A stretch of DNA of 55,721 nucleotides from an uncultured Alphaproteobacteria bacterium (GTDB taxonomy: Bacteria; Pseudomonadota; Alphaproteobacteria; RF32; CAG-239). Of this stretch, positions 26,965 through 54,504 are shown in pieces. The notes below the pieces were generated by a model. It was not told the origin of the DNA, searched no databases, and saw only the letters and a list, made by a program, of their open reading frames with translations. The position numbers and the translations under genes were made by a program. Numbering within the stretch: the stretch's first letter is position 1; every line of letters starts with the position of its first letter. The stretch is taken from positions 1 through 55,721 of the forward strand of contig CASFTO010000023.1 of NCBI GenBank assembly GCA_949297665.1, written 5' to 3'.

Positions 26965-26983
26965 CTCCTCAAAAGATAAAAAA

Positions 26984-37225: not shown

Positions 37226-38098
37226 CTATTTAAGAGCCGGAATATTTAGTTGAGCAAAATCTCCGGGTTTAATTTTAACAGTAGCATAACGCAAATTTTC
37301 AGTTTCAATCATATACTCTTCGCGACCTGTAAAATACGCAGCCAATTTATAAAAATCGCGTCCATTGAGTTCTTGCTTTTCCCAATTCATCAAATAAAAA
37401 ACACACGCTTGACTTTTATCGGTCAAACCACAGCGTGGACGTCCGGCTGGAATATCAGGATTAGCTACAATACCTTCAAGTCCCCGATTCTCAATTGTCT
37501 GGGAAGAAAAGAAAGCCTTTCCGATAAATAAACCAACAAAAAGACAAAAAACTGCAGCAATATATAAAATATTTTTTTTGACATAAGATGTGTCGTCTTG
37601 CAAAATTTCATCAGCTATTTCATCGTCTTCATCGTAATCTAAATCGTTATCCAAATCATCTAAAGAAAAAGACAGATCGGAATGAAGCTCGTTTGAAGTA
37701 AGATATTGAGCATCTTTGGCTCTAACAAGACTAGAACTTTGAGGAGAATTAAACTCATCGGACGCAGATTGTTCAGAATTATCGAAGGCATCCGAAGAAT
37801 TAGAAGAAGCCCTCTCTGAGATAGAATCTCCTTCTGAGACGTGACTAAGTTCTCGCTGTCTGTCAAAAGACTGACTAGAAGCGACATTAGAATTTTGAGA
37901 TACAGATGGCATAACTTTGTCAGGCGGCATCGGAATATCAATTGCAGCTCTGATTTTTGGTCTTTTTATTTTTCTGAGTTTCGGACGATTCTGCAAGGGA
38001 TCGTTTTGTTGCGGATATAAACTTTGCGAAAAATTCTCAGAAGAAATATCACCTTCAGGAGTCGGTGTAACTAAATCATCTAAATTTTCATTACTCAT
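37226..38098 (-). CDS. Single-pass membrane hypothetical protein (disordered Ser/Asp-rich N-terminus, small Cys-pair C-terminal domain)
   Basis: Low-complexity N-terminus, TM ILYIAAVFCLFVGLFIG, then GLEGIVANPDIPAGRPRCG...ACVFYLMN. Confidence 0.75.
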   Translation of the reverse strand: MSNENLDDLVTPTPEGDISSENFSQSLYPQQNDPLQNRPKLRKIKRPKIRAAIDIPMPPDKVMPSVSQNSNVASSQSFDRQRELSHVSEGDSISERASSNSSDAFDNSEQSASDEFNSPQSSSLVRAKDAQYLTSNELHSDLSFSLDDLDNDLDYDEDDEIADEILQDDTSYVKKNILYIAAVFCLFVGLFIGKAFFSSQTIENRGLEGIVANPDIPAGRPRCGLTDKSQACVFYLMNWEKQELNGRDFYKLAAYFTGREEYMIETENLRYATVKIKPGDFAQLNIPALK

Positions 38099-38109
38099 GT
38101 ACAAACTCT

Positions 38110-39387
38110 CTAAATTCTATTTTTTATTTTTTCATCTGTTTTCAACATTCTAACCAATCTTGGGACAATAAACACAATAGTCTCCGTTCCCTGATAAGCC
38201 GAACCAAATATTTCACTGGGCAAACCAATAATCAAGAAGTTCTCACCTAATTTATTTCTAACTTTAAATTTAGTAATTTCCCCTTCAGTTGTATCCAGAG
38301 TAACCTCTGAGTAAATACGATTATTTTTCTCCAAAGACGCCCGTGCCAAAACAGACAGAGGATACTCCATATTATCTAATTTACCGCAACGCCCCACATC
38401 AAAACGAGAGAACCATCGCGTCGGAACAACAAAGCGTCCCTCAGAAATATTTTCAACAGTAGCGTATTTTGCAACAAATTTTTGTAACTGCTCAAGAGAT
38501 AAATCATTAGTTACTGTCAACATTCTGCCAATAATACCGGTCTGAGCAGTTGCAATAGTTCCGAATTTAAAATCTTTCAATAAATCGTTCCAAACAACTC
38601 CACATGGTTCTTTAGGAATAACTCTAAATACACTAACATCATACATAATCATAGCCGGATTATTTTCAAAATCTGCTATTAATTCGTTTATTTTATTCAT
38701 TGTTTCCAAATTTGTTTCAAAGGAAACCGTATAATCACGCCAATTTGTAACGACATCAGTAATACCGGCCCCTCTCAAAATATCCAAGAAACCAAGTAAA
38801 AGGGTTCTAGAGCTTGGTGCATACAAAGTAAAACTGGCACGTCGACTTAAGATAAGAGAATTTGTTTTGGCATCATATCTGTAAAACAAATCCGCCGAGC
38901 GAGAAATCATCTCTACAACTTCTTTAAAACTGCCATTTAAATTTTTACCGTAAAGATTTGGATAAGGAGCGTCTTTAGCAACAAGAACAATATTAGCTTC
39001 TTGTGTAAGTTTAAGAAGAGCTTGTTCAGCAGGAATATTGTCAAAAGTAAAATTTCTGACCTCAAAATCCGGCAGTTCATCATTAACATCATTACGTTCG
39101 ATTCTGAAAGAAACATTGTTATGAGGTAAAATTTGTACCATTTCTTGCGTTTTCCAATTAACATTACAACGCAAAGGTGTTTCCAAATCTAAATCATTTG
39201 CTCTAAAAGTTGTTCTAAGCATATAAGGATTTTCTTGAGGTAAAATAATAAAGTTATCCGTAGCGCTACCGTTGACAGCCGTATTGGTAATAACCGTTTC
39301 TTCATCACTTTGGTAAGCATTACAAGCGACAAAGGATAATAAAGAAAACAAAATTAAAAGACTTCTCTTTCCTAGACCCAACTTCAC
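38110..39387 (-). CDS. Secretin-like outer-membrane lipoprotein (PilN/BfpB-type architecture, compact)
   Basis: Lipobox FVAC. N0-like segment (FDNIPAEQALLKL...NGSFKEVVEMISRSADLFYRYD), N3-like segment (VVTNWRDYTVSFETN...INELIADF) and a secretin-start motif (MYDVSVFRV...GVVWND). The GTG start at 39387 has AAGGTGAG upstream. Confidence 0.55.
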   Translation of the reverse strand: MKLGLGKRSLLILFSLLSFVACNAYQSDEETVITNTAVNGSATDNFIILPQENPYMLRTTFRANDLDLETPLRCNVNWKTQEMVQILPHNNVSFRIERNDVNDELPDFEVRNFTFDNIPAEQALLKLTQEANIVLVAKDAPYPNLYGKNLNGSFKEVVEMISRSADLFYRYDAKTNSLILSRRASFTLYAPSSRTLLLGFLDILRGAGITDVVTNWRDYTVSFETNLETMNKINELIADFENNPAMIMYDVSVFRVIPKEPCGVVWNDLLKDFKFGTIATAQTGIIGRMLTVTNDLSLEQLQKFVAKYATVENISEGRFVVPTRWFSRFDVGRCGKLDNMEYPLSVLARASLEKNNRIYSEVTLDTTEGEITKFKVRNKLGENFLIIGLPSEIFGSAYQGTETIVFIVPRLVRMLKTDEKIKNRI

Positions 39388-39388
39388 G

Positions 39389-39895
39389 TTACTCACCTTT
39401 ACTTTCAATATTTTCTTCATTTTCAATAAGTTTTTCTTGTTCTGCCATCAATTTGGCAACAACATCATCAATACTCTGGCCTGCGCCTTTAGTTGGATCA
39501 TCTGCTTGATTGGTAAAACCACCGAAAGCATCTTTTGCCGCACTTAAATCCTCATCTTTTTTTGCAGCCATATCGACAGATGCGTTTCTCTCCAATTCTT
39601 GCTTATATAAATCCAGATTTTTTTTCAACGCAGCCACACCGCCTTTAATTTTCTTCTCAACAAAAGGATGGAGTTCACTATGTTCAAGAATATAATCGCC
39701 AGTTTCACACAATTCAGTCAAAACATCAATAATATATGGATAGAAAGGATAATCCTCAACAGCGATATTTCCCTGTCTGATGCATCTTGCGGCGATTCTA
39801 GAAACGGTACGGTCATAATAATCTCTGATAAGTACATAGTTATCTATATACCAAAGAGATTCTTTTGTGACAGTCAACTCGTCATTATCAGCCAT
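39389..39895 (-). CDS. Hypothetical cytoplasmic protein
   Basis: Strong RBS (AAAGGGGG), 168 aa, stop abuts the secretin-like gene start. Confidence 0.75.
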   Translation of the reverse strand: MADNDELTVTKESLWYIDNYVLIRDYYDRTVSRIAARCIRQGNIAVEDYPFYPYIIDVLTELCETGDYILEHSELHPFVEKKIKGGVAALKKNLDLYKQELERNASVDMAAKKDEDLSAAKDAFGGFTNQADDPTKGAGQSIDDVVAKLMAEQEKLIENEENIESKGE

Positions 39896-39954
39896 AATAC
39901 CCCCTTTTTCTATAACCATAAAATAAAGAAAATATGAAACAATGTAAATCTTTT

Positions 39955-42900
39955 TTATTTTTTATTATCATCAAGTTTAGAATCTGCACCATCTACATTG
40001 GAATTATTTTCATCATCATCTTCTTCATCCACATACTCCCATTCCCAATCTTGATCATCATTTTCGGAAATCGGATTACCATTTTCATCAACGTATTCCC
40101 ACTCCCAATCGTCATCACCGGAATTAGAAACAGCATTCTGCTGAGAAGCCACGGCAGATGAATCGTTGGAAACTGCCGTATATGATAAATCAGAAGCTGT
40201 GGATTTTGAAACACTTGACAAAATGTCATCATAATTATCCTTACCTACATTTTCATCATCGCTATAATCATCAAGTTCAATCGGTTGATCTATAGAAGCA
40301 ATATCAATATTATCGGAAGTTAGCGCTTGGCGAATTTTATCAAGTTCTGCGCTATAACGACTTTGTATAGTCTGATTAGACTGTTGACCGATACTTTCGC
40401 CCATAAAATCATCAAGAGCGGATTTGCTATTTGAGCCGGTAATATCGTCTCTTTGAGGTTCAGATAAGACAGTCTGATTAGATTGTTGACCAATACTTTC
40501 GCCCATAAAATCGTCAAGAGCGGATTCGCTATTTGAGCCGGTAATATCGTCTCTTTGAGGTTCAGATAAGACAGTCTGATTAGATTGTTGACCAATACTT
40601 TCGCCCATAAAATCATCAAGAGCGGCTTCTCTATTTACGTCAGTAATATCGTCTTTTTGAGGTTCAGATAAGACAGTCTGATTAGATTGTTGACCGATAC
40701 TTTCGCTCATAAAATCGTCAAGAGCGGATTCGTTATTTAAGCTGGCAATATCGTCTTTTTGAGGTTCCGACAACATAGTCTGATTAGGCTGTCGACTAAT
40801 ATCTTCACTCATAAGCGTGTCTAGATTAGAAATATTTTGCTCACGTTTCTGTGCTAAATTGTTTTGAGATACTTGTTCCTCTATATCAACATCACCAAAC
40901 TCCCCTATATTAATAGAAGAAGATTCAGCATAAATGTCATTGTTACCGACTGGATGCATAATAGCTTGTTGATCGGCATTTTCTTCGATCTTCTCCCTCG
41001 AAGGCGTAATATTAGTTTTGTCTTGTGTTAAATCAATTTGATCCGTTTCGGATGCTGATAAATCTGTACTAAAAGAGTTATTCGAGGATAAAAAATCCGT
41101 TTCATCAGTTTTTTTACTATTTTGATTTAGAGTTACACGTGGTAATGGAAAATCCAAATCATCATCAAACTCATCGGAAATATCATCTTTATCTAAAACA
41201 TTATCTGACGAAGCACTAATATCTTCAAATCCCATGGAATGAGAAACCTCTGAAGAAGTATCACTACTCCCGGAAAAAACGGCTTCAGGTAAAGCAAAGT
41301 CTAAGTCATCATCAAAAACATTTTCACTATCAATATTACTGATATGCCCAATATTTGAAAAAACTTGTGTTTTTTCGGTAAAAGGAGGCTCTTTTTCAAT
41401 CTCAGGCAATACAAAGTCTAAATCGTCACGAACTTGGCGTGATGAAGCATCGGAAACCACAGATTGAGTATTATCCTCATAAAGGGAATCATTAACAACA
41501 TTTTCCTTTGGGGATGAATAACTATTTTTATCAAGATGCGTCTCAGTATGAGGATTAACAGAAATATCGTCAGAATCAAGCGGTGGAATATCAAGACGAA
41601 CATTGTCAAAATTATCTTCATGCTTAAACGCTTTATTACGAATGACGCCATCAAAAGAAGGAATTCCTCCTTTGCTATGTGAAGAATTATCATCGGAGTG
41701 GACAACGTCTTTCGTATTAAAATTATGCTCAACATCAATAATTGTATCTTTTATGGGAGCCTGACTATCCACCATATGAGTCTGATGCTCCTCTACAAAA
41801 AATCCGTCTCTATTTCTTTTTTTCTTTTTTTTCTTCCTTTTGACCTCGGAAGGATTATCTTGAAAACCGGAGTAATCACCGTTATCATCAGAAAGCAATT
41901 CATCTTCCACCGAATGACGAACGATATTCTCCGATGTATTTAAAGACGAAACCTGAGTAGTAGAAACGGAAGGATTTATTGAATTATCCTCATGAGAAAT
42001 TTTTGGCTCCGATACTTTTCCAAAGACATTAGTATTAGAATGACTTTTATCAGAGAAATGGACATCACGAGCATTACCGACGGTCTGAACAGAAGTTTGA
42101 GTATCTGCAGAAGAGGACCTGGTCTCAATAATAAGTTTTCTATCCTGAAGGCTCTGAGCACAAAGTCTGAACAATTCCTGCATTTTTTGCAAAGAGATAT
42201 CCAAATCGCCGGAGATTTCCTCTCTGAAACGTTGTAAACGGTTCTCTATATTCAAATACTCAGATATCTCGGCATTTTTTTTATTACTGGCCGTATACAG
42301 ACCTTCCAACAATTTAGTAATAGATGCTTGAGAAGCAATAATTCTATTATTCAAATCTGCAATATCGGTATCATCTCTATCCCGCGTAGCTAAAATTCCT
42401 TCCAAGATACGAGAGATAGACACTTGAGAAGCAATAACGGAGTCTGTAATGCTGCGAGTTTCTTTTAAGACATCAAGCAAAGATGCGCGAGAAGTACGAA
42501 TTTCTTCAGCAATAATATCAAAAGCATTGCCAAAATCAGCGGTAATTGCAGATGGCGCAGCGACTGAAGACACGGGAGATTGCGGTAATTGTTTAAAAGC
42601 ATTAGCCAAAGCCTGTGCTAAGGCATCTGCAAATGATGCGTCAATAGTAATATTGCCGGAAACTGCTTGTACAACACCTCCGGAAACAACACTAGGTGTA
42701 TCAGTTTTCCCGGCACCTTCGTCAAAATCTTCCCGATTAGCTTTAACAAAAGCGATTCCCCGTTCTGTTTTAACGTTTTCGATGTGTTCGACAAGTAAGC
42801 GGCCACCGGGCATTCTTTTAAAGAAATCAGTAATATTCTGCGGTAAGGCTAAAAGTTCATTATCAAATTCATCTCTTTTAGCCTTATTAAAAATATGAAC

Positions 42901-42996
42901 CTGTCTAAAGATATTCAGATAACGTTGAGCGACAAGAATAGGAGCTTCTTCGCCACTTTTATCGCTACCGAATTCTACATCATTTAAGTTTTCCAC
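39955..42996 (-). CDS. Large acidic, largely disordered protein with 34-aa tandem repeats
   Basis: 1013 aa open frame. Folded-looking N-terminus and coiled-coil, an Asp/Ser-rich middle, repeats, and a WEWEYVD x2 tail. Confidence 0.8.
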   Translation of the reverse strand: MENLNDVEFGSDKSGEEAPILVAQRYLNIFRQVHIFNKAKRDEFDNELLALPQNITDFFKRMPGGRLLVEHIENVKTERGIAFVKANREDFDEGAGKTDTPSVVSGGVVQAVSGNITIDASFADALAQALANAFKQLPQSPVSSVAAPSAITADFGNAFDIIAEEIRTSRASLLDVLKETRSITDSVIASQVSISRILEGILATRDRDDTDIADLNNRIIASQASITKLLEGLYTASNKKNAEISEYLNIENRLQRFREEISGDLDISLQKMQELFRLCAQSLQDRKLIIETRSSSADTQTSVQTVGNARDVHFSDKSHSNTNVFGKVSEPKISHEDNSINPSVSTTQVSSLNTSENIVRHSVEDELLSDDNGDYSGFQDNPSEVKRKKKKKKRNRDGFFVEEHQTHMVDSQAPIKDTIIDVEHNFNTKDVVHSDDNSSHSKGGIPSFDGVIRNKAFKHEDNFDNVRLDIPPLDSDDISVNPHTETHLDKNSYSSPKENVVNDSLYEDNTQSVVSDASSRQVRDDLDFVLPEIEKEPPFTEKTQVFSNIGHISNIDSENVFDDDLDFALPEAVFSGSSDTSSEVSHSMGFEDISASSDNVLDKDDISDEFDDDLDFPLPRVTLNQNSKKTDETDFLSSNNSFSTDLSASETDQIDLTQDKTNITPSREKIEENADQQAIMHPVGNNDIYAESSSINIGEFGDVDIEEQVSQNNLAQKREQNISNLDTLMSEDISRQPNQTMLSEPQKDDIASLNNESALDDFMSESIGQQSNQTVLSEPQKDDITDVNREAALDDFMGESIGQQSNQTVLSEPQRDDITGSNSESALDDFMGESIGQQSNQTVLSEPQRDDITGSNSKSALDDFMGESIGQQSNQTIQSRYSAELDKIRQALTSDNIDIASIDQPIELDDYSDDENVGKDNYDDILSSVSKSTASDLSYTAVSNDSSAVASQQNAVSNSGDDDWEWEYVDENGNPISENDDQDWEWEYVDEEDDDENNSNVDGADSKLDDNKK
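40369..40830 (-). repeat. Intragenic 102-bp (34-aa) tandem repeat, ~4.5 copies
   Basis: TCTGATTAG recurs at 40371, 40473, 40575, 40677 and 40779. Unit ~ALDDFMGESIGQQSNQTVLSEPQRDDITGSNSES. Confidence 0.93.
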
Positions 42997-43060
42997 AATC
43001 CCAACCTTTATGCAAAATGATTAATAAAAGAATTTCTATATAACGACAACAGAAGAATTT

Positions 43061-44035
43061 TTACAAAGCAATATCTACGACCTTATGTATTTTTTTAAAG
43101 TCATCATTATTAAAATAGATTCTCTCTTCAGGGTTCCACATTAAACCATAAAGTTGCCCAGTTTCATCTTCTCTCATACTAACGACAAAAGCCTCCTGTT
43201 CTGTTTTATAATAGAGTGCGATATCACCCACACTGGCAACTTCACTTGGAGCGACAAACATAACGGCACGATTAGAAAGAATAGAGCCTAATCTTCTGGT
43301 ACACAAGCTAACGCCATAAACATCTCTTTTATCCGATAGATTCGCCGGTTTAATAGCTTCCTTAGCCGCCAAAGATTTATCAACAACGATAGAACCATTG
43401 ACACCTGAAGAACCGAATACAGGAACTTTTAATGTTTCCAAATCAATATAAGCATTACTATGATCATTAGCCGGGCGAACAATATTTTGCACTTTATACT
43501 TCGTATCATTATGAGCCATAATTTCTTCCAAAGCACCGGCGGCATCAAGTCTTTTAATTTCCTCTTTCAATGCTTCAACTTCCAATCCTAAAGCCTTTGC
43601 AATACTTTTATATTCTTTATCAGAAACCTCACGTTGCCCCATTTCAATACGGTGATAAACGGACAAGGTCATATCAGCATTTTCGGCAACTTCAATCAAA
43701 GTCAAAGACTTTTCATTTCTAATATATCTGAGAGCGGCGCCCAAAACTTTCAAACCACTGCTTTTATTAATTTCCTGTCGACGTTCCTGTTCTTTTTTCC
43801 AAGCCATAACGACTTCGTGCTGAGAATTTTGTTCGTTAACATAAAGATCCTGCAATGAGCAATCCAGCACTTCTGCAACCAAGATAAGTTGTTCTTGATT
43901 AAGCCTTCTGTAACCTTTCTCGATTTTAGAGATAGCAGAGAGGCTAATACCCAATCTATCAGCCAAATCCTGCATAGAAACGCCACGCATTTTACGATTA
44001 ATTCTAATTTGGTTAGGGAATACAATTTCTTCCAT
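43061..44035 (-). CDS. XRE-family regulator with two HTH domains and a C-terminal S24/cI-like domain
   Basis: HTH1 SMQDLADRLGISLSAISKIEKG, HTH2 TLIEVAENADMTLSVYHRIEMG, C-terminal KVPVFG...GDIALY. GAGGTG RBS precedes MEEIV. Confidence 0.85.
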   Translation of the reverse strand: MEEIVFPNQIRINRKMRGVSMQDLADRLGISLSAISKIEKGYRRLNQEQLILVAEVLDCSLQDLYVNEQNSQHEVVMAWKKEQERRQEINKSSGLKVLGAALRYIRNEKSLTLIEVAENADMTLSVYHRIEMGQREVSDKEYKSIAKALGLEVEALKEEIKRLDAAGALEEIMAHNDTKYKVQNIVRPANDHSNAYIDLETLKVPVFGSSGVNGSIVVDKSLAAKEAIKPANLSDKRDVYGVSLCTRRLGSILSNRAVMFVAPSEVASVGDIALYYKTEQEAFVVSMREDETGQLYGLMWNPEERIYFNNDDFKKIHKVVDIAL

Positions 44036-44292
44036 AGCAATACACCTCACATGAAAATAATTTTACTTAATAATAATCTTGCCAAAAAAATATGCAAGTC
44101 AAAAAAGATAAAATTCCTCAAATATGTATAACTTTTGTCAAGGGAGAGGAATTTATCCATATCAAAAAAGAGTAAAAAGAAGTAAGTAGTTAAATTTAAA
44201 TAAAATAAGGCAGGAAGAACCGAAAAGACAAAACCTCCACCATCTAATAAAAAATATTGCCGATTTTGTGTAAATTAAAAGACTAAAATAAA

Positions 44293-47200
44293 TTAAAGAA
44301 CTCTGCCAATCGGTGTACCGGAATGATCATAAGCAATTCCACCGGTAACGTTACCTATATTAGTACCGCTGTTTCCAAAGATAGCTCCGGATGCATCAGC
44401 TCTTCCGATAATATTACCATTATCATCGGCAACATAAAGAGTATCCATAGTCCAATCAATATTAGAATTCAATTTATTAGTTCTTTTGATTCTTCCGCGC
44501 CGAAGAATATTATCACGCACATAGTCTTTAGTATTTTGTCCGTTAATATTTTGAACTCCGGCCAAGTCATCCAGTCCAAAGAATAAATCTCCTTTATAAC
44601 CATCTCTTCCGGCAAACGCAGGATCCATATCTTGAGCAACTGCTCCGTTTCTCTCAAGGATTTGATTCCCGTCAATTTTATCGGCAAAGTGATCATGTCC
44701 CTTTTGCGCGTAATCCGAGAATTTATAAACAGTTTGTTCCCCGATGGTACTGGCTTGTCCTTTACGCAAATTACCTTGAGTTTTATAGCCTGTAGTCGTA
44801 ATATTGACAAGACCGTTATCAAAAACGCTTTCGTACATGGCATTATATTTAGCCTCAGTAACGGTTGATGATGAACCGTGCGATACTGTTTTATTACCGT
44901 CAACATCTTTACGAATCTTTTCGTTAATATCAATAGAAGTCTTTTTCATTAAAGGCACGCCATCGGCATTTTTGAGAACATTTCCGTTTTTATCCTGATA
45001 TTCAACAATTGTTGAATTTTTATAAAATTTAGTAACCTTAACGGTATTAGGCCCCATGGCTTCAACTTGGGTATAATATGTATCTCCGGTAGATGCATCA
45101 ATATGGCTGGCATAAACTTTATTTCCGACTCTCGCTGTTGCTCCGCCGGTAGAGTTATTGACGGCCGAGGGAGAAGTGTTCAAAGCCTGTTGAATATCTA
45201 TCATTTTCTGTATATGTTTCATATATTTTCGAGTGGTGTCTTTTTCTATTTCAACTCCGTTTCGGTTATATATTTTTGTAATTTTCGGACCGAAGAACAA
45301 GTATTTACGACTTTCGCGTTCATAAAATCTCTGTCCTGAACCGTCAAGTTTTGTTGAGTAAGTAAAAAGACCACCGGGAAATCTAAAAACATGTCCGACC
45401 CCGGGAACATTTGCCCCAAGTGTCTGAATAATAGCACTGGTAGCTGCGATATTTATAGCTCTTCCTGCGCGTTTTCTAACTCGTCCTAATTTTTCAATAC
45501 GATTTTTATCCCGTTCACGATAGAATTGCACGGCAACCTGTCCGGTAGTCGGATCAATTTTCATACCAAAGCTGGTTGTTTTTCCGGTATTGTCTTTTTG
45601 TTCGATATGTAAATTATAAGGATCATTTGGATCAAATTGCACATGACGATCGTAATAATAAGCCCCGATATCCTTGCCGGTTTTTTTCTTAATAACTTCG
45701 ACAGCGAGTTGAGCCATCAGTGCTTTACGATATTCTGGATCTTGTCCCAAAGGTGAATTCAAAAGCGTCTGCACGGCACCGACATTAATTTTTCCGGTAG
45801 CATCATCAATTAAGTGATTTTTTATGAAGCCGTGTTTAAATTTGACCTCGCTTTTCACTTCACGACCTGATACATTTGCATATTCTTTTTTAATAGTAGA
45901 ATATTTATCAGAAATCATAACATGTCGACGCCCTGTAATTGATCTAAATTCTCTGCGTAAAACATGAGAACCGTCAGCATTGCGTTGTGTCTGAAATTTA
46001 ATACCTGCAAAGCTAAGAGTTTTGACACCTGCACCATTATCCGTTCCAAACGCTCTGACACCGGCCATAACCCCTTGTCTGATACCTGCTCGAACACGGC
46101 GGTCTACGACTCTCCCGGCAGATTTTGCAGCATTACCTGCAGCACCAACCCCCCAATCTGCTGCTTTTCTCGTTTTTTCATCAATAGTATTTCTGAGGGC
46201 AGAACCGATTTTTCCGGCAGCATTCAATCCGGAGCCTTCAGAAAAGCGACCGGCAATATCAGAGATAGCCGGCATATAAGCCCAACCGATAACAAGGATG
46301 AAAATAAGTCTCATCATATTCTGCCCATAGAAAGCCAATCCTTGATTAGGTTCAGTAAAGAATTTTTCGGGATCTGCAGCAGACGGATCAAATTTAGCTT
46401 CCAAAAATTCACTAATATACCCGAGGATACACATAACCAAAATAGCCATAAACATAAATACAAACAGAGAATTTAATAGCCAAGAAAACACCTTAGACAG
46501 ATAACTTCTTGTTCCGCTAAACGCATATCCACAAACAGCAAAGGGTAGTATAGCCATAGCCACACCAAATTGCAAAACGGCATCACCCATAATCCAAGGA
46601 TAAGTAACCATAAAGAAAATACCGGCAATATATAAGACAATTCCATCTATAATCAGTATAGGATGAGGAATAAGGTGAAAAATACGTTTTGGTCCATATC
46701 CCAAGCAGAGAGCCCAATCACCAAATTCAAATAGAGTATTAATTTTACGTTCGATATCCTCAACAGCGCAAACAATAGATGTTCCGATAGCCATAGGCAG
46801 ACCGCCATTTCCTCCGCTACTGGCAGCACCGGAATATCCGATAATACCACCGGCATTAGCGCATGTCGTGTTTCCGCTTTTAACAAAAGCAAATCCTGTT
46901 TCAAAAATAGGAGAAAGCGTCATATTAAGGATATTGTAATAATCACGAGAAATAATGATATAAATAGCCACACAAACAAACGTTTTTTTAAAAATATCGT
47001 TTAACAAGGCACTAGGATCTTTAGAGCCCATAGAGGCAATATTGCGCAAAATAATTAAAGCCAAAGACACACTCAAAAATACCATAACCAATTTACCCAA
47101 GTCAGAAGAAAAGACCTGATAGGATTTTGCGGCGAGCAGACTACTGGCATTAAATATGATTTTAAACAAAGGACAAAAGAGACAATTAGTAGAGTTCATA

Positions 47201-47388: not shown

Positions 47389-47400
47389 CACAACCACTCC

Positions 47401-48351
47401 TTATTTTCTTGTTTTGGCAACTTGTTTTCCATATCGAGCCAAAACATCGCCTAAAAAACCACCTTTTTTCTCGCCCATACGTTCCATTTTTTTGCCAATT
47501 TGGTGTTTGGTAGCATCTTTTCCAAATTTCGCGACTTTACCGAGAGTTTTCTGATTAACCAGAGCAATAACTTGTGTTAATTTCGCATCCATAGGGCTTC
47601 CGAGCAAAGCTCCGTCAAAAAAGTGATTACAAAATTCTTTAGCCATAAGCGGAATAATATGCATAGCCACAAGATAAGAAACCAGAACTTTAAGGAAAGT
47701 TAATGTGAATACCCCCAAATTATCACGAATAATATCTGATTTGTCCTCATCAAAAACTTGTTGGATTGTCCCCGCCTCACCAAAAGCATTTTCAATAATA
47801 GTAACGACAATTTCCGTTCCGATTAAAATTCCCAAAGGCAAAAAGATAAATAAACCTGTATAATAAGTAATATTTTCCACAACAATTTTTAATTTACCTT
47901 TAGTCCAAGCAAAAGGCCACAAAGCCAAGACAAGCGGTAAAAGCACAATAGCAAAAGAAAGATTAAACGCCACATCAAACATATAGAAAGATGCAATAAT
48001 GGAAATAAAGAAACCTAAGACATACAAGATACATCCGCTGACAAAAATATCCAAAGCGACAAACTGAAAAGAATAATTAAAACCTTCCACGCCGATTTTA
48101 ACGGTAGCTGCTTCACCATGTAAAGAATTGCAGATGAGTAAATTTCCGATTTTCATCATTTCTTTAGAAGCGTTATTAATTATTTTGGTCATATTGGTGA
48201 CACCATCAACCATTTTTTCCATGGCCGTAATATTTTGACCATCCAAAGACAAATCCGGCGGTCCCATATTACCAAGCTGAGCAGATGCATCAGGAACAAC
48301 GGTACAGAGGAGAAATAAAGCAAGAATCAGATAAAGAAAACGTCTAAACAT
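47401..48351 (-). CDS. VirB6/TrbL-like unit 4, C-terminal half with its own signal peptide
   Basis: MFRRFLYLILALFLLCTVVPDASA, then KIGNLLICNS...FYMFDVAFNLSFAIVLLPL...WT, matching the C-halves of units 1, 2, 3 and 5. Confidence 0.6.
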   Translation of the reverse strand: MFRRFLYLILALFLLCTVVPDASAQLGNMGPPDLSLDGQNITAMEKMVDGVTNMTKIINNASKEMMKIGNLLICNSLHGEAATVKIGVEGFNYSFQFVALDIFVSGCILYVLGFFISIIASFYMFDVAFNLSFAIVLLPLVLALWPFAWTKGKLKIVVENITYYTGLFIFLPLGILIGTEIVVTIIENAFGEAGTIQQVFDEDKSDIIRDNLGVFTLTFLKVLVSYLVAMHIIPLMAKEFCNHFFDGALLGSPMDAKLTQVIALVNQKTLGKVAKFGKDATKHQIGKKMERMGEKKGGFLGDVLARYGKQVAKTRK

Positions 48352-48352
48352 A

Positions 48353-48895
48353 TTACCACCCTCCCAATCCTGTTGCATTAGCAAAAGCGCCGCCTATATC
48401 AAAACCGATACTCAAAAGAGGATTAACAATATAATGAACAATAGCATCGATTCCCGAATTAATTAAAGCATACATCAAAGCCACTTTGAAACAAAATAGA
48501 AGTAGTCCGTCAATAACTTTAGCAGGATCTTGCGTTGTAAAAGAGCCGAGTGTTTTTAAGAAATAAACAGCAATCCAGATACAAGCGCCGCCTCCTAAGA
48601 TTATTTTCGAAAGAGAAAGAGTTGCATCAAAAAGAGTGCCGGCGACATCAGACATAGACATCATTAGCGTAAAAACAACATCACACGACCAACAACCTGC
48701 ATCGGCGTATTTTTTATCGATGACGGAGGATTTGCAGTAACAAAGATATTTTTCGGAATCTGATTTTTTACTACAATCTTCTGTTGCCGAAACAGCAAAA
48801 TCAGCATATAACAAAACAGCAAGACAACAAGTCGTCATAACAAGTAATTTATGGCGCTGCACAAAACAAATAAATTTATTAATCAAGTTAATCAT
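48353..48895 (-). CDS. VirB6/TrbL-like unit 4, N-terminal half
   Basis: GCWSCDVV and IWIAVYFLKTLGSFTTQD...FKVA...IVNPLLSIGFDIG, matching the N-halves of units 1, 2 and 5. Confidence 0.6.
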   Translation of the reverse strand: MINLINKFICFVQRHKLLVMTTCCLAVLLYADFAVSATEDCSKKSDSEKYLCYCKSSVIDKKYADAGCWSCDVVFTLMMSMSDVAGTLFDATLSLSKIILGGGACIWIAVYFLKTLGSFTTQDPAKVIDGLLLFCFKVALMYALINSGIDAIVHYIVNPLLSIGFDIGGAFANATGLGGW

Positions 48896-50201
48896 CGTTA
48901 TACCCCGCCATTGAATCAATTTTAGAATTAATTTTGCTTCTAACCGTCCTAATACTATCTAATAGTTCTCTGGAACCTTGATATTTTTCCATAGTAGTCG
49001 TAATAGCCTTTGTCGCACCGGCAGTAACAGCGCCCAAAGCCGCAGCACCGGCACGTTTTGCTGTATTAATAGCAAATTGGGAAACTTGTTTTTGAAAATC
49101 CAAACCACGTCCTCCGCCGATAAATTTATCAGCCATAGTGCAAGCCAAACCAGGGATATTAATAATAAGAACTGCGATTAACCATAGAGAAAGCAAAATA
49201 GGACCCTGACCGGCTAAACTTGTTTCGGTAAAGAAGTTTTGGGTCGCAAATGTTTTTAGGATATATTCCAAAGAAGTGACGGATATAGAAATTAAAATTC
49301 CCAAGAAAAGAATAATACCGGAAGAATTCAGGAACATTTCAAATCCAAATTTACTCCATTTACGTGTATAATTAAAAGGGACACCTAAAATAAGTAGAGG
49401 GAAAAGAAAAGCCGCAAAATTAAGCCTAAATAAAGAATCAACAAGGAAAAAGACAAAAGCGAATTTTGCAAAAGTATAAAGAACCATCATAGAAAGTCCG
49501 ACAAATATGGCCCCCAAATCTAAAGAAGAAACAAGAACAACCCCAACTCTAATACCGCCGTTTAATCTATCGCTAATCATACATGTCATACAATAGGTCA
49601 TAGGTTTAATAGAATTAGTGAGATCTGTTGCGACAAGATTAGAAGTAGTACAATGATTATAATTACCAGTGAAAACGATCGTTCCCATTTCACTTCCCAA
49701 ATCAATAGAAGTACTCGGATTAATCTGTCCCAATACATTAGCACCTAACTCTATAATAGTATTATAAAGCGGGACAACAAAGGTACTCAGCGTCCAAGTA
49801 ATTAAATCAACACTGGAAGCAGCCCAGCCGCAAAAAGCGCAGATGAATAATTTTTGAATAATTTCGGTCCAAATCTCGCCTAAATTTTCCTCCTTAAAAG
49901 AAGGTAGGATTTTGAGTAATCTGAAAGCCATCCAGATTGCGAAACCAAGCATAACCACAACCCAGCCGTCGACGGCAACTTTTTGAGCAGCCTCTTTAAA
50001 CATATCATTTACCGGAGTGAGTACGATTTCAATAATTTTAGTTTGCCAGCATTCAGCCTGCCCCGTATAATTTCCCTCCATACCGGAGGCTTTATCTTGA
50101 CTTTCATCACAAGCGCATAAGAAAAGAGGAAGCATAAAGCTAAACATTATGCGAAAAGCCTTTGAGGTAAAACATATATATATCCAGTTCCACATCATCA
50201 C
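48888..50201 (-). CDS. VirB6/TrbL-like polytopic membrane protein, unit 3 (lipobox)
   Basis: LCAC lipobox, AECWQT and FFLVDSLFRLNFAAFLFPL...YTRKWSKFGFEMFLN. Confidence 0.6.
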   Translation of the reverse strand: MMMWNWIYICFTSKAFRIMFSFMLPLFLCACDESQDKASGMEGNYTGQAECWQTKIIEIVLTPVNDMFKEAAQKVAVDGWVVVMLGFAIWMAFRLLKILPSFKEENLGEIWTEIIQKLFICAFCGWAASSVDLITWTLSTFVVPLYNTIIELGANVLGQINPSTSIDLGSEMGTIVFTGNYNHCTTSNLVATDLTNSIKPMTYCMTCMISDRLNGGIRVGVVLVSSLDLGAIFVGLSMMVLYTFAKFAFVFFLVDSLFRLNFAAFLFPLLILGVPFNYTRKWSKFGFEMFLNSSGIILFLGILISISVTSLEYILKTFATQNFFTETSLAGQGPILLSLWLIAVLIINIPGLACTMADKFIGGGRGLDFQKQVSQFAINTAKRAGAAALGAVTAGATKAITTTMEKYQGSRELLDSIRTVRSKINSKIDSMAGYNDD

Positions 50202-50208
50202 TCACATC

Positions 50209-51630
50209 CTAACGCCAAAGTTTATCTCTCCAAAATCTCTTATGCCAAAAAGCACGATAACCTTCTCTGCCGCTACCAGTTAAGATACCCCGTGTAATTT
50301 GAGCTTTATTTCCGGTCCATTTATAGAGTTTATCAAGTCTTGTAACTCTAGCCCCGACATGACCGGCATATTTAACACCGGCACCAGTCCAACCTCCAAC
50401 CGCTTTCCCGGCTTTTTTAGCTCCTTTAACAAGCGGTTGTGAAACAGCAGCGCCGACTTGACTTCCAACACTTGTCAAATTATCGGTACCGGATATTTTA
50501 TGTACCAAGTTATTGATTTGTGAAGCCATTTGAACAATAACACAGAAGCAAACAATTGTAAGCAACAAATCACCATGATTCCATAAATCTTCAGCCATTT
50601 CTTTAATTTGATTTTCATCCATACGCATATTCAAGTCAGTCATAAAAGCACTAAGAGCCCCGCCGCCGCCTTCCAATGCAGCTTGTTCACTACTTCCTTC
50701 AACACCAATACCTAAGTTAACTAATTGAATAGTCAGTCCCAACATAATTCCGAGCATAACAAAACTAAAGAAAGCATTTAAGAATATTTCCCAAATCTTT
50801 TTAGTATAAGGCGACGTGATTGCAGAAATAGCTGCAGCAACACCAAAAGGTAAGAGAACTGCGCCAAAAGCTAAACGAATAAGGATATCGACAATATAAA
50901 AAGAAATACCGACAACCAGAATCCATCCGAATACGAATAGGAGAAAACCATAAAACAGCATTAGCCATTCCCATTTGAAAATATTATCAGGAAGAGTAGC
51001 ATTGCAAATCATAGCTTCGCCAATGGCGACGGTTTTATAAACTTCATCGTTAAATTGTCGAACGGAAATATTTATCATTTCAAATAAAGCATCATATCCG
51101 GTACCGGAAGCAGTAGCCATAGTAGCATCAGTAACCGACAATTTAGAACCGATATTAAGTCCGGCTTGCAAAAGAGGAGAAATAATGCTATTGACAAACC
51201 ACTTATCAGTTAAAAGGAGAGTTATAACCGCCGTTTTAAACATAAGCAAAAGGACGCCGCGTTTATCACCGGTTAAGAAATCAGCAGCATTTTGTTTAGT
51301 GAAAGAGCCAACATTTTTAAGAACATAAATAGCAATATATATAGCCGCCGCAAGACCCACAACAGGAATTAAATCGGCAGCAAATAAGTCCCAAGATTTA
51401 TTGGCAGCTTTGGCAGAAGATTTGGTAATAACAGAAAACATACGGCAAAGTAAACAATTACCATCTCCTCCTGCTCCATCACTTTTTCCTTCATTTAAAT
51501 AATATTGAACAGTAGGGCAAACATCTTCATCATTACATCCGGTAAGAAACAATACTAAGACCAAAGGAGTAATATACTTAAGTCCTTTTAAGAGCTGTTC
51601 TAGAAGATTATGTCTATTAAAAATACTCAT
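50209..51630 (-). CDS. VirB6/TrbL-like polytopic membrane protein, unit 2 (lipobox)
   Basis: FLTGC lipobox, CPT...NCLLCRMF and FYIVDILIRLAFGAVLLPF...YTKKIWEIFLN. Confidence 0.6.
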   Translation of the reverse strand: MSIFNRHNLLEQLLKGLKYITPLVLVLFLTGCNDEDVCPTVQYYLNEGKSDGAGGDGNCLLCRMFSVITKSSAKAANKSWDLFAADLIPVVGLAAAIYIAIYVLKNVGSFTKQNAADFLTGDKRGVLLLMFKTAVITLLLTDKWFVNSIISPLLQAGLNIGSKLSVTDATMATASGTGYDALFEMINISVRQFNDEVYKTVAIGEAMICNATLPDNIFKWEWLMLFYGFLLFVFGWILVVGISFYIVDILIRLAFGAVLLPFGVAAAISAITSPYTKKIWEIFLNAFFSFVMLGIMLGLTIQLVNLGIGVEGSSEQAALEGGGGALSAFMTDLNMRMDENQIKEMAEDLWNHGDLLLTIVCFCVIVQMASQINNLVHKISGTDNLTSVGSQVGAAVSQPLVKGAKKAGKAVGGWTGAGVKYAGHVGARVTRLDKLYKWTGNKAQITRGILTGSGREGYRAFWHKRFWRDKLWR

Positions 51631-51644
51631 AGTTCAAGCCCTCA

Positions 51645-52949
51645 TTATAATCCCACCCATCTTTTGACGCGTGATTTAATATTCCGTCCATTTGTACGCA
51701 ACCAAGTACCGGCTTTACCTTCGGAAATTCGTCTTCCCGTTTCGAGTCGAGCGGTATTAGCAAATCCAAGAGCCCCTTTAGTAACTTTACTTGCGGGCCA
51801 TTTAACGACTTGCGCTGTAATAGCACCAGCCTTCTGCCCGAGTTTACCCACGGAAGATGAAGAAGAAACCGTATCCGTAATGCTTTCGATTTCCATAAAT
51901 AATTTAAACGAAACCATGCAACAAATAGTAGTCAGGAGGAAAGAACTGATTTCTATTTTTTCAGCAATATCTTTAGCATCAGAGTCGGTAATCGGGGTAG
52001 ATTTAGAAAGCAAAGCCCTTAAATCACCACTACCACTCATAGCTTCCATAATCATATCTTTGATAAACTCAAGAATCATGCCAAGCATAACAAAATTAAA
52101 GAAGACATTAACAAACAAGTTCCAAGTTTTTCTGGTATAAGTAGACGTCAATTTAGATACGCCGCAAGCAATAGCCATTGGGAGGAGCATACAACCGACA
52201 GCCAGTCTGAAGATAACATCTAACAAATAAAATCCTGAGCCGATTAAAAGGAACCAACCGAAAACATACAAAACAGCACCAAAAGGAATAAGATGAAAAT
52301 GCCAATCAAGAATTCCGTCCGGCAGAAAAGCAACACACAAAAGCAATCGTCCAAAAGCCACAATTTCATAAAGGCTATCATTAAATTCTCTGACATTATC
52401 AATAACCATATCAAACAAAGCAGATACATCACTGGCACTACCAAAGCCGCTCAGGGTTCCACCAGTAACATCTCGTCCGATAGCCATACCGGTTGCAATA
52501 ACGGGACATATAATATTATTATAAACAAAACTCTGATTTCCGAGAAGCCAGGTTACGGCGGCAACTTTAACACACAGAGGAATAATACCTGTTTTATCAT
52601 TAGAAAGATAAGCAGCAGGATCTTGTTGAGAGAAGTTACCAATATTTTTAAGAGTATAAACAGCAATATAGATAGAAGCGGCCACAGCAACAACACCTTG
52701 TAAAGGAACAGCAAAAGTATTCCAAGAAAAGTTTGCTATATCGGCGCAAGCCTCAGTAACAATTTTATATATACCGCACAAAAGGCAATGATCATCTGCC
52801 CCCGTAGCGCCATTACTGGTTCCCTCTTGAATATAATCATTAAGCGTCGGACACATACGTTCGCTTTTTGCAAATCCATAAGAGAAGGAAAGCAAGTAAA
52901 AAAAGAGTGTTGAAAAGAAAAGTCTAAGAGATGTCGGTATTTTGATCAT
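51645..52949 (-). CDS. VirB6/TrbL-like polytopic membrane protein, unit 1
   Basis: Signal peptide from MIKIP (GAGGTG RBS), CPT...HCLLCGIY and FYLLDVIFRLAVGCMLLPM...YTRKTWNLFVN. Confidence 0.6.
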   Translation of the reverse strand: MIKIPTSLRLFFSTLFFYLLSFSYGFAKSERMCPTLNDYIQEGTSNGATGADDHCLLCGIYKIVTEACADIANFSWNTFAVPLQGVVAVAASIYIAVYTLKNIGNFSQQDPAAYLSNDKTGIIPLCVKVAAVTWLLGNQSFVYNNIICPVIATGMAIGRDVTGGTLSGFGSASDVSALFDMVIDNVREFNDSLYEIVAFGRLLLCVAFLPDGILDWHFHLIPFGAVLYVFGWFLLIGSGFYLLDVIFRLAVGCMLLPMAIACGVSKLTSTYTRKTWNLFVNVFFNFVMLGMILEFIKDMIMEAMSGSGDLRALLSKSTPITDSDAKDIAEKIEISSFLLTTICCMVSFKLFMEIESITDTVSSSSSVGKLGQKAGAITAQVVKWPASKVTKGALGFANTARLETGRRISEGKAGTWLRTNGRNIKSRVKRWVGL

Positions 52950-53151: not shown

Positions 53152-53223
53152 GCGAACCTCGGAAAATTCCTTAACCTAGATTTATTATATCATAAAAAAA
53201 GCAAAAAAAATATTACAATATCG

Positions 53224-54063
53224 TTAAATTTTTCCATTATTAATAAATTTGACGGTAAAATTCAAAATTTTTTCGTTATTAAGCGTTTTGAAAGTATCAC
53301 CTTGAACAATGACAGTATTTTTTTTCTTATAATTGAATGCCGGTAGAGGAAATCCGATTAACTTTAAGAGTCTGAGGATAGCCATATATGTTTTAGAATT
53401 AGAAAATATTTTAAGAGTATTAAACTGACTAGGCAAATCTGGAATATTCTTAATATTATTTTCAGTCATATCTTCAATCATTGGACCACACAACAGTCTG
53501 GATAAGCGAAACTTAGCCAATAAGTCGCATAACAGACTTCCGGAAACAACCGGATTAATCGCCACAATATTTCGGATTCTCATTTTAGTCTGAAACGTTT
53601 GCAATTCCGGCGGAAGATTAAATAATTGCTGCAAGACAAGATTTCCAGCACCTTTTGTAACAAAAGAAACATTAGTAACATCCTCCATATGATTAAGGAA
53701 GAACAAAAGCTGATAAGCAGAGGCTAATGAATTTCGAAAAAGGGAAGGGTAATTAATGGCGGCAACAGTAGAGTTGGTAAGAACCAATTTTCGCCACAAA
53801 GGTTTAAAAATATTTTTGCCATCCATATACCCATGTAGCAAAACGACAAGATTACCTTTTTGTTTTGTGATTTCATAACTTTCAATATAACGGATAAAGG
53901 CCTTCTGACATTCTTCAAAAGAACCACTGGCACGACGTATATCCCAAGAGTCCAGTAGTCTATATCGTTTAGTACCGCAATGTCTTTGGATTCGCCATTT
54001 TTGATAAAAAAAGACATCTTCCCAAAAAAGCGAGCCGCCGAAAGTAAAAAAGTTAAAAGCCAT
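53224..54063 (-). CDS. Alpha/beta-hydrolase-fold protein with a degenerate nucleophile elbow
   Basis: WRIQ...RLLD N-domain, VVLLHG and INYPS. FVTKGAGN stands where FVxHSxGG is expected. Confidence 0.7.
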   Translation of the reverse strand: MAFNFFTFGGSLFWEDVFFYQKWRIQRHCGTKRYRLLDSWDIRRASGSFEECQKAFIRYIESYEITKQKGNLVVLLHGYMDGKNIFKPLWRKLVLTNSTVAAINYPSLFRNSLASAYQLLFFLNHMEDVTNVSFVTKGAGNLVLQQLFNLPPELQTFQTKMRIRNIVAINPVVSGSLLCDLLAKFRLSRLLCGPMIEDMTENNIKNIPDLPSQFNTLKIFSNSKTYMAILRLLKLIGFPLPAFNYKKKNTVIVQGDTFKTLNNEKILNFTVKFINNGKI

Positions 54064-54072
54064 CGGAGTCCT

Positions 54073-54504
54073 CTATATAGTTAAGGCTTTAACACTAGCC
54101 TGATTCGGAATAGCCGTTACAGTAACAAAAGCGGAGTCGTCCCCTTCCATCTGAATAAGAATTTGAACGGCGCGACCATTTTTCACATAAGTCATCTGAC
54201 TAATTCCCGCTCTTACGACGGCAATTTCGACCCATCCTTTTTTAGGCATTTCGGCAACATAGAAGTCAAAAACACGTCCCGCATTAAAATTAACTGTAAA
54301 ACAGATGCTACCAATCCAATTTTCACCGCTTCCCATTGTTTTGGAGTCTTCCAAAACTAAAAAAGCATCATCGGGAAAAGGAATATCAGGAAAGTTTTGA
54401 AAAACCATAGGGATTTCACGTCCGTCGGAACCCAACATTGGGGTAGGATCTTTGGCGCAACCACATAATAAAGCTAAAACAAGCAATAAATAAATTCTTT
54501 TCAT
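54073..54504 (-). CDS. Hypothetical lipoprotein (FxDIP ... FYxxxMPxxGW motif)
   Basis: AAGGAG RBS and LLCGC lipobox. Motif shared with the 1837-2211 protein. Confidence 0.8.
   Translation of the reverse strand: MKRIYLLLVLALLCGCAKDPTPMLGSDGREIPMVFQNFPDIPFPDDAFLVLEDSKTMGSGENWIGSICFTVNFNAGRVFDFYVAEMPKKGWVEIAVVRAGISQMTYVKNGRAVQILIQMEGDDSAFVTVTAIPNQASVKALTI

Follow-up and report, generated by a model that had tools for sequence, protein, structure and literature searches.

A conserved array of VirB6-like genes adjoining a secretin-family lipoprotein operon in uncultured gut Alphaproteobacteria

A 55,721-nt stretch of contig CASFTO010000023.1 (assembly GCA_949297665.1; hereafter the window), from an uncultured Alphaproteobacteria bacterium of RF32, CAG-239, contains two adjacent, co-oriented operons, one encoding an array of VirB6/TrbL-like paralogues and the other a secretin-like lipoprotein with its partners. 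This locus is chromosomally fixed across a large clade of gut and rumen Alphaproteobacteria that have not been cultured. Secretins (type II secretion, type III secretion and type IV pilus systems) and VirB6 (type IV secretion) belong to two lineages of machines, each of which is taken to exclude the other; no description of their pairing or of this locus was found in the literature on RF32, on VirB6 with secretin, and on orphan secretins. The reading that we favour, though tentatively and at a probability of roughly 0.45, is that operon 1 would be one islet, carrying VirB6, of a type IV secretion system (T4SS) that is divergent and scattered and that acquired a secretin module, operon 2. For comparison, genomes of relatives were inspected over approximately 20 kb each around the orthologous cluster; these loci are labelled L001–L096, and the 96 loci and the window together amount to 1.64 Mb. 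Among these relatives, the genome that contains L021 is 98% identical to the window.

The open reading frame (ORF) listing contains 14 minus-strand genes that run uninterrupted from 54531 to 37226, approximately 17 kb, between a divergent 16S rRNA gene upstream (54969–55721, plus strand) and an A/T-flanked hairpin of 13 pairs downstream (37179–37208). An earlier note on this DNA had described a co-directional run of 13 genes from the rrn promoter region to a terminator. The run and its borders were as described; the count was one short, as a gene for a 75-amino-acid (aa) protein with two transmembrane (TM) helices had been overlooked. The note had also reported mostly overlapping or very short spacers, which is correct for spacers of −32 to +72 nt and fails at one 242-nt gap upstream of the regulator gene (44051–44292). 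In a promoter scan, this gap was found to carry a conserved sigma-70-type promoter (TTGACT-N18-GATTAT, 44073–44102), and the block TTTTTTGACTTGCA...TATTAT is kept in at least 13 orthologous regions. Because the gap holds a conserved promoter, the cluster is predicted to consist of at least two transcription units. No copy of the block lies upstream of operon 1, and a search for an operator or motif shared by both upstream regions found none. Judged by its sequence, the block appears to be merely a strong promoter, which also resembles the promoter of the signal recognition particle (SRP) RNA. A small bacterial SRP RNA gene is located at window positions 26879–26969, and the region upstream of it shares a promoter-like block, TTTTGACTTGCA, with the region upstream of the regulator gene. 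Comparison with relatives revealed that the longest ORFs run past several true starts, which were placed near 52949 for the first paralogue, at 48351 for the C-terminal half of a split paralogue and at 39387 for the secretin-like gene. Signal peptides, lipoboxes or TM helices were present in 10 of the 14 products, in agreement with the earlier description of mostly membrane or exported proteins. None of the 14 proteins contains a Walker A or nucleoside triphosphatase (NTPase) motif, and NCBIfam gave no match for the ten cluster proteins scanned.

All-versus-all BLASTP demonstrated the paralogy of the products of 51645–52949, 50209–51630 and 48888–50201 (paralogues 1–3) and of the first 440 residues encoded by 44293–47397 (paralogue 5), with 38% identity between paralogues 1 and 2. 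The paralogues have 5–7 hydrophobic helices (in paralogue 1, a signal peptide and 5–6 TM helices), and the C-terminal tails of all are strongly basic, with isoelectric points (pI) of 9.8–11.7. An AlphaFold2 (AF2) model of paralogue 2, obtained at moderate confidence (predicted local distance difference test, pLDDT, 64.5), was compared with the Protein Data Bank (PDB) using Foldseek. The best eight matches were all TrwI/VirB6 of R388 (best E 2.3e-4, template modelling score (TM-score) 0.60), with probabilities of 0.94–1.00 (1.00 for the first seven) and target-normalised TM-scores of 0.47–0.61; no other credible match was found in the PDB. Pfam TrbL (PF04610) matched paralogue 1 with an E-value of 2.4e-5 and 24.6 bits, against a cut-off of 25.9, and matched no other paralogue of the window. 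The same model was weak in 9 of 21 family members (best E 2e-5), none of them shown at the cut-off, and exceeded the cut-off for paralogues from the orthologous clusters in L008 (34.8 and 29.0 bits) and L091 (28.6 bits). The paralogue 2 family comprises 70 homologues, and in alignment A1 of the VirB6-like family P261 is invariant and W280 nearly invariant. In hhalign, the LLP...T..Y.K.W motif aligned locally with 'LLAIGPLILTGYIFDRTRDIAAKWI' of Agrobacterium tumefaciens VirB6 at an E-value of 0.084, which is not significant alone; the conserved Trp of A. tumefaciens VirB6 is essential. The A1 profile gave only chance-level matches to PDB sequences, a homologue search with a mixed paralogue profile (A7) returned two hits, and tblastn of a TrbL-positive paralogue against 72,556 plasmids returned no match. 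Overall, the case that the paralogues are VirB6-like is of moderate strength.

Paralogue 4 is encoded by two genes. Its N-terminal half aligns with residues 42–161 of paralogue 2 and its C-terminal half with residues 159–316 (BLASTP), and the second gene begins 1 nt past the stop codon of the first. This two-gene split is kept in all of the relatives L001–L007, at identities from 65% down to 35%. As the split is conserved, both halves are under purifying selection and the C-terminal half has gained a signal peptide, the comparison argues that the split is not decay. Paralogue 5 differs from the others in its long basic extension, which closes with repeats of the beta-flower type (weak Pfam match to Bflower_2), a fold first described in PMC10584680. 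The repeat unit at its C-terminus matches repeats in a VirB10-like protein of L083 (see below). In three relatives, the orthologous large VirB6-like paralogue begins with a Peptidase_M23 domain, a peptidoglycan endopeptidase (L006:8137-11085, L050:843-4478 and L065:3009-6656), which paralogue 5 of the window does not have. By analogy, such a fusion would take the role of VirB1 in classical systems and would fit a machine that crosses peptidoglycan.

The secretin-like protein has a lipobox, N0/N1-type domains and a compact secretin domain of approximately 170 aa that ends ...GENFLIIGLPSE...ETIVFIVPRLV. The Pfam Secretin model (PF00263) scored neither the window protein nor any of 37 family members. 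A phmmer search of 1.84 billion representative proteins retrieved 149 relatives; ten distant full-length relatives were scanned, all ten of which carry Pfam Secretin, some together with STN or TcpQ. The family profile (A2) matched the secretin P0277 with 118 bits over profile positions 82–324 and 350–412, corresponding to the N-domains and the C-terminal strands. P0277 shares an operon with GspE/PilB-like and PilC-like genes. MshL was the nearest NCBIfam family for P0277 and for four other scanned secretins; PilN was matched in addition by two of these four, but not by P0277. The AF2 model of the window protein reached a pLDDT of 85 and a predicted TM-score of 0.75, and its top 45 Foldseek matches in the PDB were all secretins, led by the competence-pilus PilQ (5.4e-10) and the lipoprotein secretin BfpB (2.4e-9) and followed by GspD, InvG, pIV and RcpA. 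The global TM-scores to these secretins were low (0.13–0.29), as expected because a monomer model was compared with chains from assembled rings. Matches of the A2 profile to PDB sequences were at chance level only. Since the phmmer relatives, the family profile and AF2/Foldseek agree despite the missing Pfam match, these searches and the model indicate that the 425-aa lipoprotein is a real, though shortened and divergent, secretin homologue. Assembly-platform or ATPase genes of type II secretion, type III secretion, type IV pilus or phage systems were absent within 10 kb of the module in seven lineages. In two loci, the secretin-like gene is directly followed by LolC/E-like (MacB_PCD and FtsX) and LolD-like ABC transporter genes (L093:11299-13213, L095:9139-11158), with an overlap of 4 nt in L093; this adjacency may be a coincidence of compact genomes or a functional link.

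The other products of operon 2 are a regulator and three proteins that we call X, Y and Z. The regulator contains Pfam HTH_3, a helix-turn-helix (HTH) domain, twice (E 5.9e-26), and no other gene of the locus is as conserved (80–98% identity within the gut clade, 55% for L008). Going by sequence inspection alone, the C-terminal part of the regulator looks like a LexA/CI S24 domain that is inactive. X is acidic (pI 4.2) and mostly disordered, with an N-domain of approximately 80 aa that is conserved in every lineage, and its length among relatives ranges from 478 to 1120 aa. Positions 40369–40801 of its gene form a 102-nt tandem repeat (4.2 copies, 90% matches) that encodes four acidic repeats of 34 aa. 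The C-terminus of X (window 39955–40230) consists of (D)WEWEYVDENGNP repeats, present in 2–6 copies in most relatives examined, degenerate in the most distant, L008, and absent from L083; the motif weakly resembles the beta-flower repeat unit. A reading of its WEWEYVDE motif as a kinesin-binding 'W-acidic' motif was dropped, as the motif does not match the published consensus and the repeat appears more beta-flower-like. Y has 34 invariant columns in alignment A4, and its domain also occurs in L008, L091, L093 and L095; it matched nothing in Pfam, and its A4 profile gave only chance-level matches in the PDB. A single TM helix divides Z into a cytoplasmic portion, which is acidic and disordered and includes a basic NRPKLRKIKRPK motif, and a periplasmic portion with a conserved domain of approximately 90 aa that contains two Cys. 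It was detected only in lineages with an adjacent VirB6 array (the gut clade, L008 and L091) and not in L093, L095 or L096. Against PDB sequences, the profiles of Z (A5) and of the 279-aa protein of operon 1 (A6) gave chance-level matches only. Pfam at a lenient threshold, applied to the C-domain of Z, longer Y homologues, the 75-aa protein, the first lipoprotein of operon 1 and the extension of paralogue 5, returned nothing credible except weak Bflower_2.

One genome per GTDB species was scanned, and the secretin-like lipoprotein was matched in 165 genomes; the loci of 80 of these were fetched, from metagenome-assembled genomes of human gut, rumen and other animal guts. Homologues of the cluster are confined to uncultured Alphaproteobacteria. 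Almost all of those looked up are named 'hypothetical protein', and one VirB6-like homologue is named 'type IV secretion system protein'. When all 14 products were searched by tblastn, the order array, regulator, X, Y, secretin and Z was the same in every sufficiently long locus among the 80, and the same gene order recurs in more distant metagenome contigs; the arrangement is therefore far beyond chance. The adjacency and orientation of array and module are also found in L008 and L091, where the secretins are only 36% and 24% identical, and the surroundings are unrelated between lineages (che genes in L008, tsaB and hisS in L091). In L006, the array is followed by the regulator and X, and the fetched stretch ends before Y and the secretin. 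The flanks of the cluster, namely nagZ, a SPOR-domain gene and the 16S rRNA gene, are also syntenic in relatives. L096:1-3413 (minus strand) encodes three consecutive proteins of 434–476 aa near the secretin module, none of which matched Pfam or a VirB6-like profile. The secretin family has no relatives among 2.9 million viral contigs. An exact-match look-up of one window protein among public contigs retrieved no record.

The ratio of nonsynonymous to synonymous substitution rates (dN/dS) was computed for 8 of the 14 genes, from split paralogue 4 through Z, with the neighbouring nagZ as control. Values of 0.01–0.33 placed all eight under purifying selection. The regulator (0.01–0.03), Y (0.02–0.04) and the secretin (0.02–0.04) are more constrained than nagZ (0.06–0.12). 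The VirB6 paralogues ranged over 0.07–0.29 (split N-terminal half, 0.07–0.29; C-terminal half, 0.12–0.19), and Z was at approximately 0.16. X evolves fastest (0.25–0.33); its dN to the closest relative is 0.21, compared with approximately 0.01 for its neighbours. These data indicate that the locus is vertically inherited and functional.

To look for further T4SS parts, the pTiC58 VirB and VirD4 proteins were used as phmmer queries against every ORF of the window and the 96 loci, a search of limited sensitivity to very divergent homologues. VirB1–VirB10 and VirD4 had no match in either. The VirB11 query matched a 322-aa ATPase in L083 and L089, encoded directly downstream of Z and convergent with it, whose best PDB match was Brucella VirB11 (2gza, 7.6e-19). 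The gene before the ATPase gene encodes a 1508-aa protein with a C-terminal TrbI/VirB10 domain (115 bits, E 3.7e-33) and seven or more beta-flower repeats ahead of it; the first gene of this operon encodes a 1146-aa beta-flower/RHS/DUF3659 repeat protein. The three-gene operon lies on the minus strand, convergent with the cluster, at L083:11946-20895 and L089:3492-12405. It is also unusual for a VirB10 to contain a giant beta-flower insertion. L083 and L089 represent one lineage (their VirB11-like ATPases are 99% identical), and no secretion ATPase was found in the 55.7-kb window or in 94 of the 96 loci.

Operon 1 begins with three further genes ahead of the array. The 152-aa lipoprotein is 82–89% identical in L001–L004 and matched no Pfam family, even at a lenient threshold. 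The 279-aa protein is present in L001–L007 with a length of 279–296 aa and 64 invariant columns in alignment A6. Its PDB matches to S33 hydrolases were sub-threshold only (E 0.09), and in the alignment it shows the pattern HG...TKG(A/C)G, with TKGAG or TKGCG at the GxSxG position; it is possibly a protein of alpha/beta-hydrolase-like fold without the nucleophile. A gene of 51–73 aa is called in L001–L008 where the 75-aa two-helix gene sits, and the 75-aa protein showed no similarity to VirB2 or VirB3 and no Pfam match. As in the window, where the cluster adjoins the 16S rRNA gene divergently (54969–55721), the cluster adjoins that gene in L003 (L003:1-1065; paralogue 2 is 48% identical there). 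The contigs of most relatives end just upstream of the cluster, probably because the 16S rRNA gene adjoins there. The rest of the window holds ordinary chromosomal genes (mfd, recG, ptsP, prfA, dnaX, the SRP RNA gene, nagZ and the SPOR-domain gene), and its G+C content is approximately 35% throughout, the same in the cluster as in its flanks. Integrase, relaxase and replication genes are absent from the cluster. The features are collected in Table 1.

Table 1. Features of the two-operon locus and its borders in the window
Feature	Position	Strand	Basis
152-aa lipoprotein, lipobox LCGC, first gene of operon 1	54073..54531	-	ORF, lipobox
279-aa basic soluble protein	53224..54063	-	alignment A6
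75-aa protein, two hydrophobic helices	52924..53151	-	ORF; called in relatives
VirB6/TrbL-like paralogue 1, 434 aa from ATG at 52949 (ORF extends to 53030)	51645..52949	-	
VirB6/TrbL-like paralogue 2, 473 aa, lipobox LTGC, basic C-terminal tail	50209..51630	-	AF2, Foldseek
VirB6/TrbL-like paralogue 3, 437 aa, lipobox LCAC	48888..50201	-	paralogy; conserved in relatives
Split paralogue 4, N-terminal half, 188 aa	48353..48919	-	BLASTP to paralogue 2
Split paralogue 4, C-terminal half, own signal peptide	47401..48351	-	BLASTP to paralogue 2
Paralogue 5, 1034 aa: VirB6-like domain (approximately residues 70–440) and basic extension of approximately 600 aa	44293..47397	-	
Intergenic region with predicted operon 2 promoter	44051..44292	-	promoter scan
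Regulator, two XRE-type HTH domains	43061..44050	-	Pfam HTH_3
X, 1013-aa acidic, mostly disordered protein	39955..42996	-	sequence analysis
Y, 176-aa acidic soluble protein	39389..39919	-	alignment A4
Secretin-family outer-membrane lipoprotein, 425 aa	38110..39387	-	AF2, Foldseek, phmmer, profile
Z, 292-aa bitopic protein	37226..38104	-	alignment A5; TM helix
Hairpin terminator, common to cluster and convergent nagZ	37179..37208	.	13 pairs, A-run/T-run arms
Divergent 16S rRNA gene, 5' part (context)	54969..55721	+	Rfam 713 bits

Among known systems, operon 1 is most readily compared with the VirB6 islet of the Rickettsia rvh system (rvhB6a–e). Five VirB6 genes lie in tandem in Rickettsia; they are very divergent and bear long flanking extensions, one strain has one of them split, and the T4SS is scattered in five islets (PMC2653234). 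Both arrays are alphaproteobacterial and chromosomal, with 4–5 divergent VirB6/TrbL paralogues in tandem that carry long extra regions; in both, one copy can be split, and the remaining T4SS genes, which are scattered in rvh, would lie elsewhere here too. The comparison is one of gene arrangement. Whereas the rvh array follows virB3–virB4, the array described here follows the lipoprotein, 279-aa and 75-aa genes, which lack VirB3 or VirB4 similarity, and a secretin operon, absent from rvh, comes after it. With P-type T4SSs (A. tumefaciens VirB/D4; R388 Trw, 7o3v/8rt9), the locus shares a paralogue model that superposes best on the TrwI/VirB6 stalk subunit, a putative TrbL motif with conserved Pro and Trp, and, in relatives, homologues of VirB10 (TrbI) and VirB11. 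Those systems have one VirB6 gene instead of five paralogues, and VirB1–5, VirB7–9 and VirD4 had no match here; the VirB10-like protein of relatives is 1508 aa long and rich in beta-flower repeats, and a secretin-family lipoprotein belongs to the conserved neighbourhood.

The secretin-like protein itself resembles the lipoprotein secretins BfpB, PilN of R64, MshL and TcpC in its N-terminal lipobox, by which such secretins are self-piloting, in its N0/N1-type domains and in a C-terminal secretin domain that closes with an ...ETIVFIVPRLV-type strand; profile and fold matches point to this group. It differs from them in that its secretin domain of approximately 170 aa is missed by Pfam and that PilB, PilC and pilin genes are not among its neighbours, its constant partners being the double-HTH regulator and two acidic soluble proteins. 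In the Dot/Icm type IVB system, DotD offers a precedent for a secretin-type N0 domain in the outer-membrane complex of a T4SS, and the N0 region of our secretin model weakly matched Dot/Icm chain 7mud_Ad (Foldseek, E 0.039). However, DotD is an N0 domain only, with no secretin barrel, and Dot/Icm lacks a VirB6 homologue.

Several observations weigh against operon 1 being the VirB6 islet of a scattered T4SS that acquired operon 2. VirB4, VirB8, VirB9 and VirD4 were not found in the 1.64 Mb of window and loci, and VirB4 is, to our knowledge, a hallmark of every T4SS. The family profiles did not match the single A. tumefaciens VirB6 sequence significantly (hhalign, E 0.08–0.25). The VirB10/VirB11-like genes were seen in one lineage only (L083/L089) and are absent from the window; moreover, where VirB10 is present, it usually makes the pore in the outer membrane on its own, and a secretin would then have no obvious role. 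The secretin operon is preceded by a separate promoter and has no operator in common with operon 1, and in L093/L094, L095 and L096 the HTH/X/Y/secretin module occurs without a VirB6-like gene within 10 kb. Because the module stands alone in these three deeper lineages, the two halves are separable. This promoter and the stand-alone modules, together with the high general synteny that also holds nagZ, the SPOR-domain gene and the 16S rRNA gene in place, would suit two unrelated systems lying side by side: the VirB6 islet of a scattered T4SS and an independent, ancient orphan-secretin module (regulator, X, Y, secretin and sometimes Z) with a job of its own, such as the export of X or the uptake of macromolecules, whose adjacency persists as reduced genomes rearrange little. 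We consider this main alternative possible, if rather unlikely, as adjacency and orientation survive down to 24–36% secretin identity amid unrelated surroundings (L008, L091), Z co-occurs only with the VirB6 array, and the VirB10/VirB11 genes of L083/L089 adjoin the cluster at its secretin end rather than at its VirB6 end.

A self-contained new trans-envelope apparatus, in which a VirB6-like inner-membrane channel and a secretin outer channel would work passively or by proton motive force with no VirB4-, VirB11- or VirD4-type ATPase, would fit the lack of NTPase motifs and of secretion ATPases noted above and the constancy of the gene set across the clade. Yet VirB10- and VirB11-like genes adjoin the cluster in L083/L089, only approximately 20 kb was inspected per genome, and we know of no characterised VirB6 and no characterised secretin that does not use a dedicated ATPase. 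The locus is thus probably not an ATPase-free machine, and we hold this explanation to be improbable; because the VirB10/VirB11-like genes adjoin the cluster in that lineage, a scattered T4SS is preferred to an ATPase-free novelty. Alternatively, operon 2 could be the secretin module of a type IV filament (a pilus or competence pilus); the PilB, PilC and pilin genes of that filament would then lie elsewhere, and the VirB6 array would have nothing to do with it. The nearest true secretins are of MshL/PilN type and, in L090, share an operon with GspE/PilB-like and PilC-like genes, and the best structural matches are a competence-pilus PilQ and the lipoprotein secretin BfpB. Against this, the module never lies beside pil genes in seven independent lineages, Pfam Secretin scores neither the protein nor the 37 family members, and pilus systems are not known to contain counterparts of X, Y or the regulator, so that we hold out little prospect for this explanation. 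Finally, VirB6 family proteins, XRE/CI-like regulators and secretins occur in mobile elements and filamentous phages, and the locus might be what is left of a decaying prophage or integrated conjugative element. Its G+C content is like that of its flanks, with no integrase, relaxase or replication genes; no relatives were found among the viral contigs and plasmids searched; its position beside rrn is fixed, selection on it is strongly purifying and its split gene is conserved as split. The selection and synteny data effectively refute a mobile-element or prophage remnant.

With regard to the earlier note, VirB6-like paralogues were upheld by the TrwI/VirB6 fold matches and the TrbL signal, the protein of 38110–39387 does model as a secretin (pLDDT 85, top 45 Foldseek matches all secretins), and the genes proved co-conserved and syntenic, in the same order across those of the 80 fetched loci that are long enough. 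The co-location of VirB6 and secretin, which the note regarded as unusual, is a real pairing for which we found no description in the literature. Its proposal of a single hybrid or novel machine fared less well: the pairing is conserved, but 'one undescribed machine' is too strong, because the secretin operon has its own promoter, the module occurs without VirB6 in three lineages and VirB10/VirB11 genes occur in L083/L089. The type IV parts that it described as missing are indeed absent from the window, while VirB10/VirB11-like genes lie directly beside the cluster in L083/L089. X, described there as an acidic scaffold, could equally be a substrate.

Beyond the gene content, folds, homologies, synteny, selection and promoter described above, we infer how the parts may assemble, how the two operons may be coupled, and which substrate and energy source may be used. 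If operon 1 is the VirB6 islet of a scattered T4SS with an acquired secretin module, it would encode an inner-membrane platform/stalk islet, and the remaining T4SS parts would be scattered, as in the rvh 'archipelago' of Rickettsia. The VirB6 paralogues would assemble as a hetero-oligomeric inner-membrane and stalk module, and VirB10-like and VirB11-like proteins encoded elsewhere would span the periplasm and supply energy. Operon 2, driven by its own promoter and probably under its own CI-like double-HTH regulator, would be a lineage-specific addition that comprises a self-piloting secretin, the inner-membrane partner Z, the regulator and the X/Y pair. The secretin ring would provide or widen the outer-membrane portal, and the periplasmic domain of Z would probably dock onto the N0/N1 ring of the secretin. 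X may be the substrate that is transported, chaperoned by Y, or may instead act in the cytoplasm as a scaffold to which the strongly basic tails of the VirB6 paralogues bind. In the full form of the proposal, a hybrid, a secretin that derives from type IV pili would have been recruited to serve as outer-membrane portal for an apparatus of T4SS origin built on a hetero-oligomer of five VirB6 paralogues, with Z as adaptor and the acidic WEWEYVDENGNP-repeat protein as cargo. This form is rather unlikely, but it has a real chance of being right.

What is found here is that VirB6 and a secretin share a neighbourhood that is conserved and under strong selection in at least 165 species of Alphaproteobacteria from gut and rumen, none of which has been cultured. 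Should the two halves cooperate, they would provide a T4SS-type machine with an outer-membrane exit that is built in a new way, and this could bear on the unexplained multiplication of VirB6 in Rickettsiales; the hybrid, if true, would be an uncatalogued secretion architecture and a core envelope organelle of an order-level clade of uncultured gut Alphaproteobacteria. If the halves do not cooperate, the module of regulator, X, Y and secretin is still an orphan secretin system that calls for explanation. In both cases, the locus serves well as a marker and as an entry point to how these abundant host-associated bacteria interact with their surroundings.

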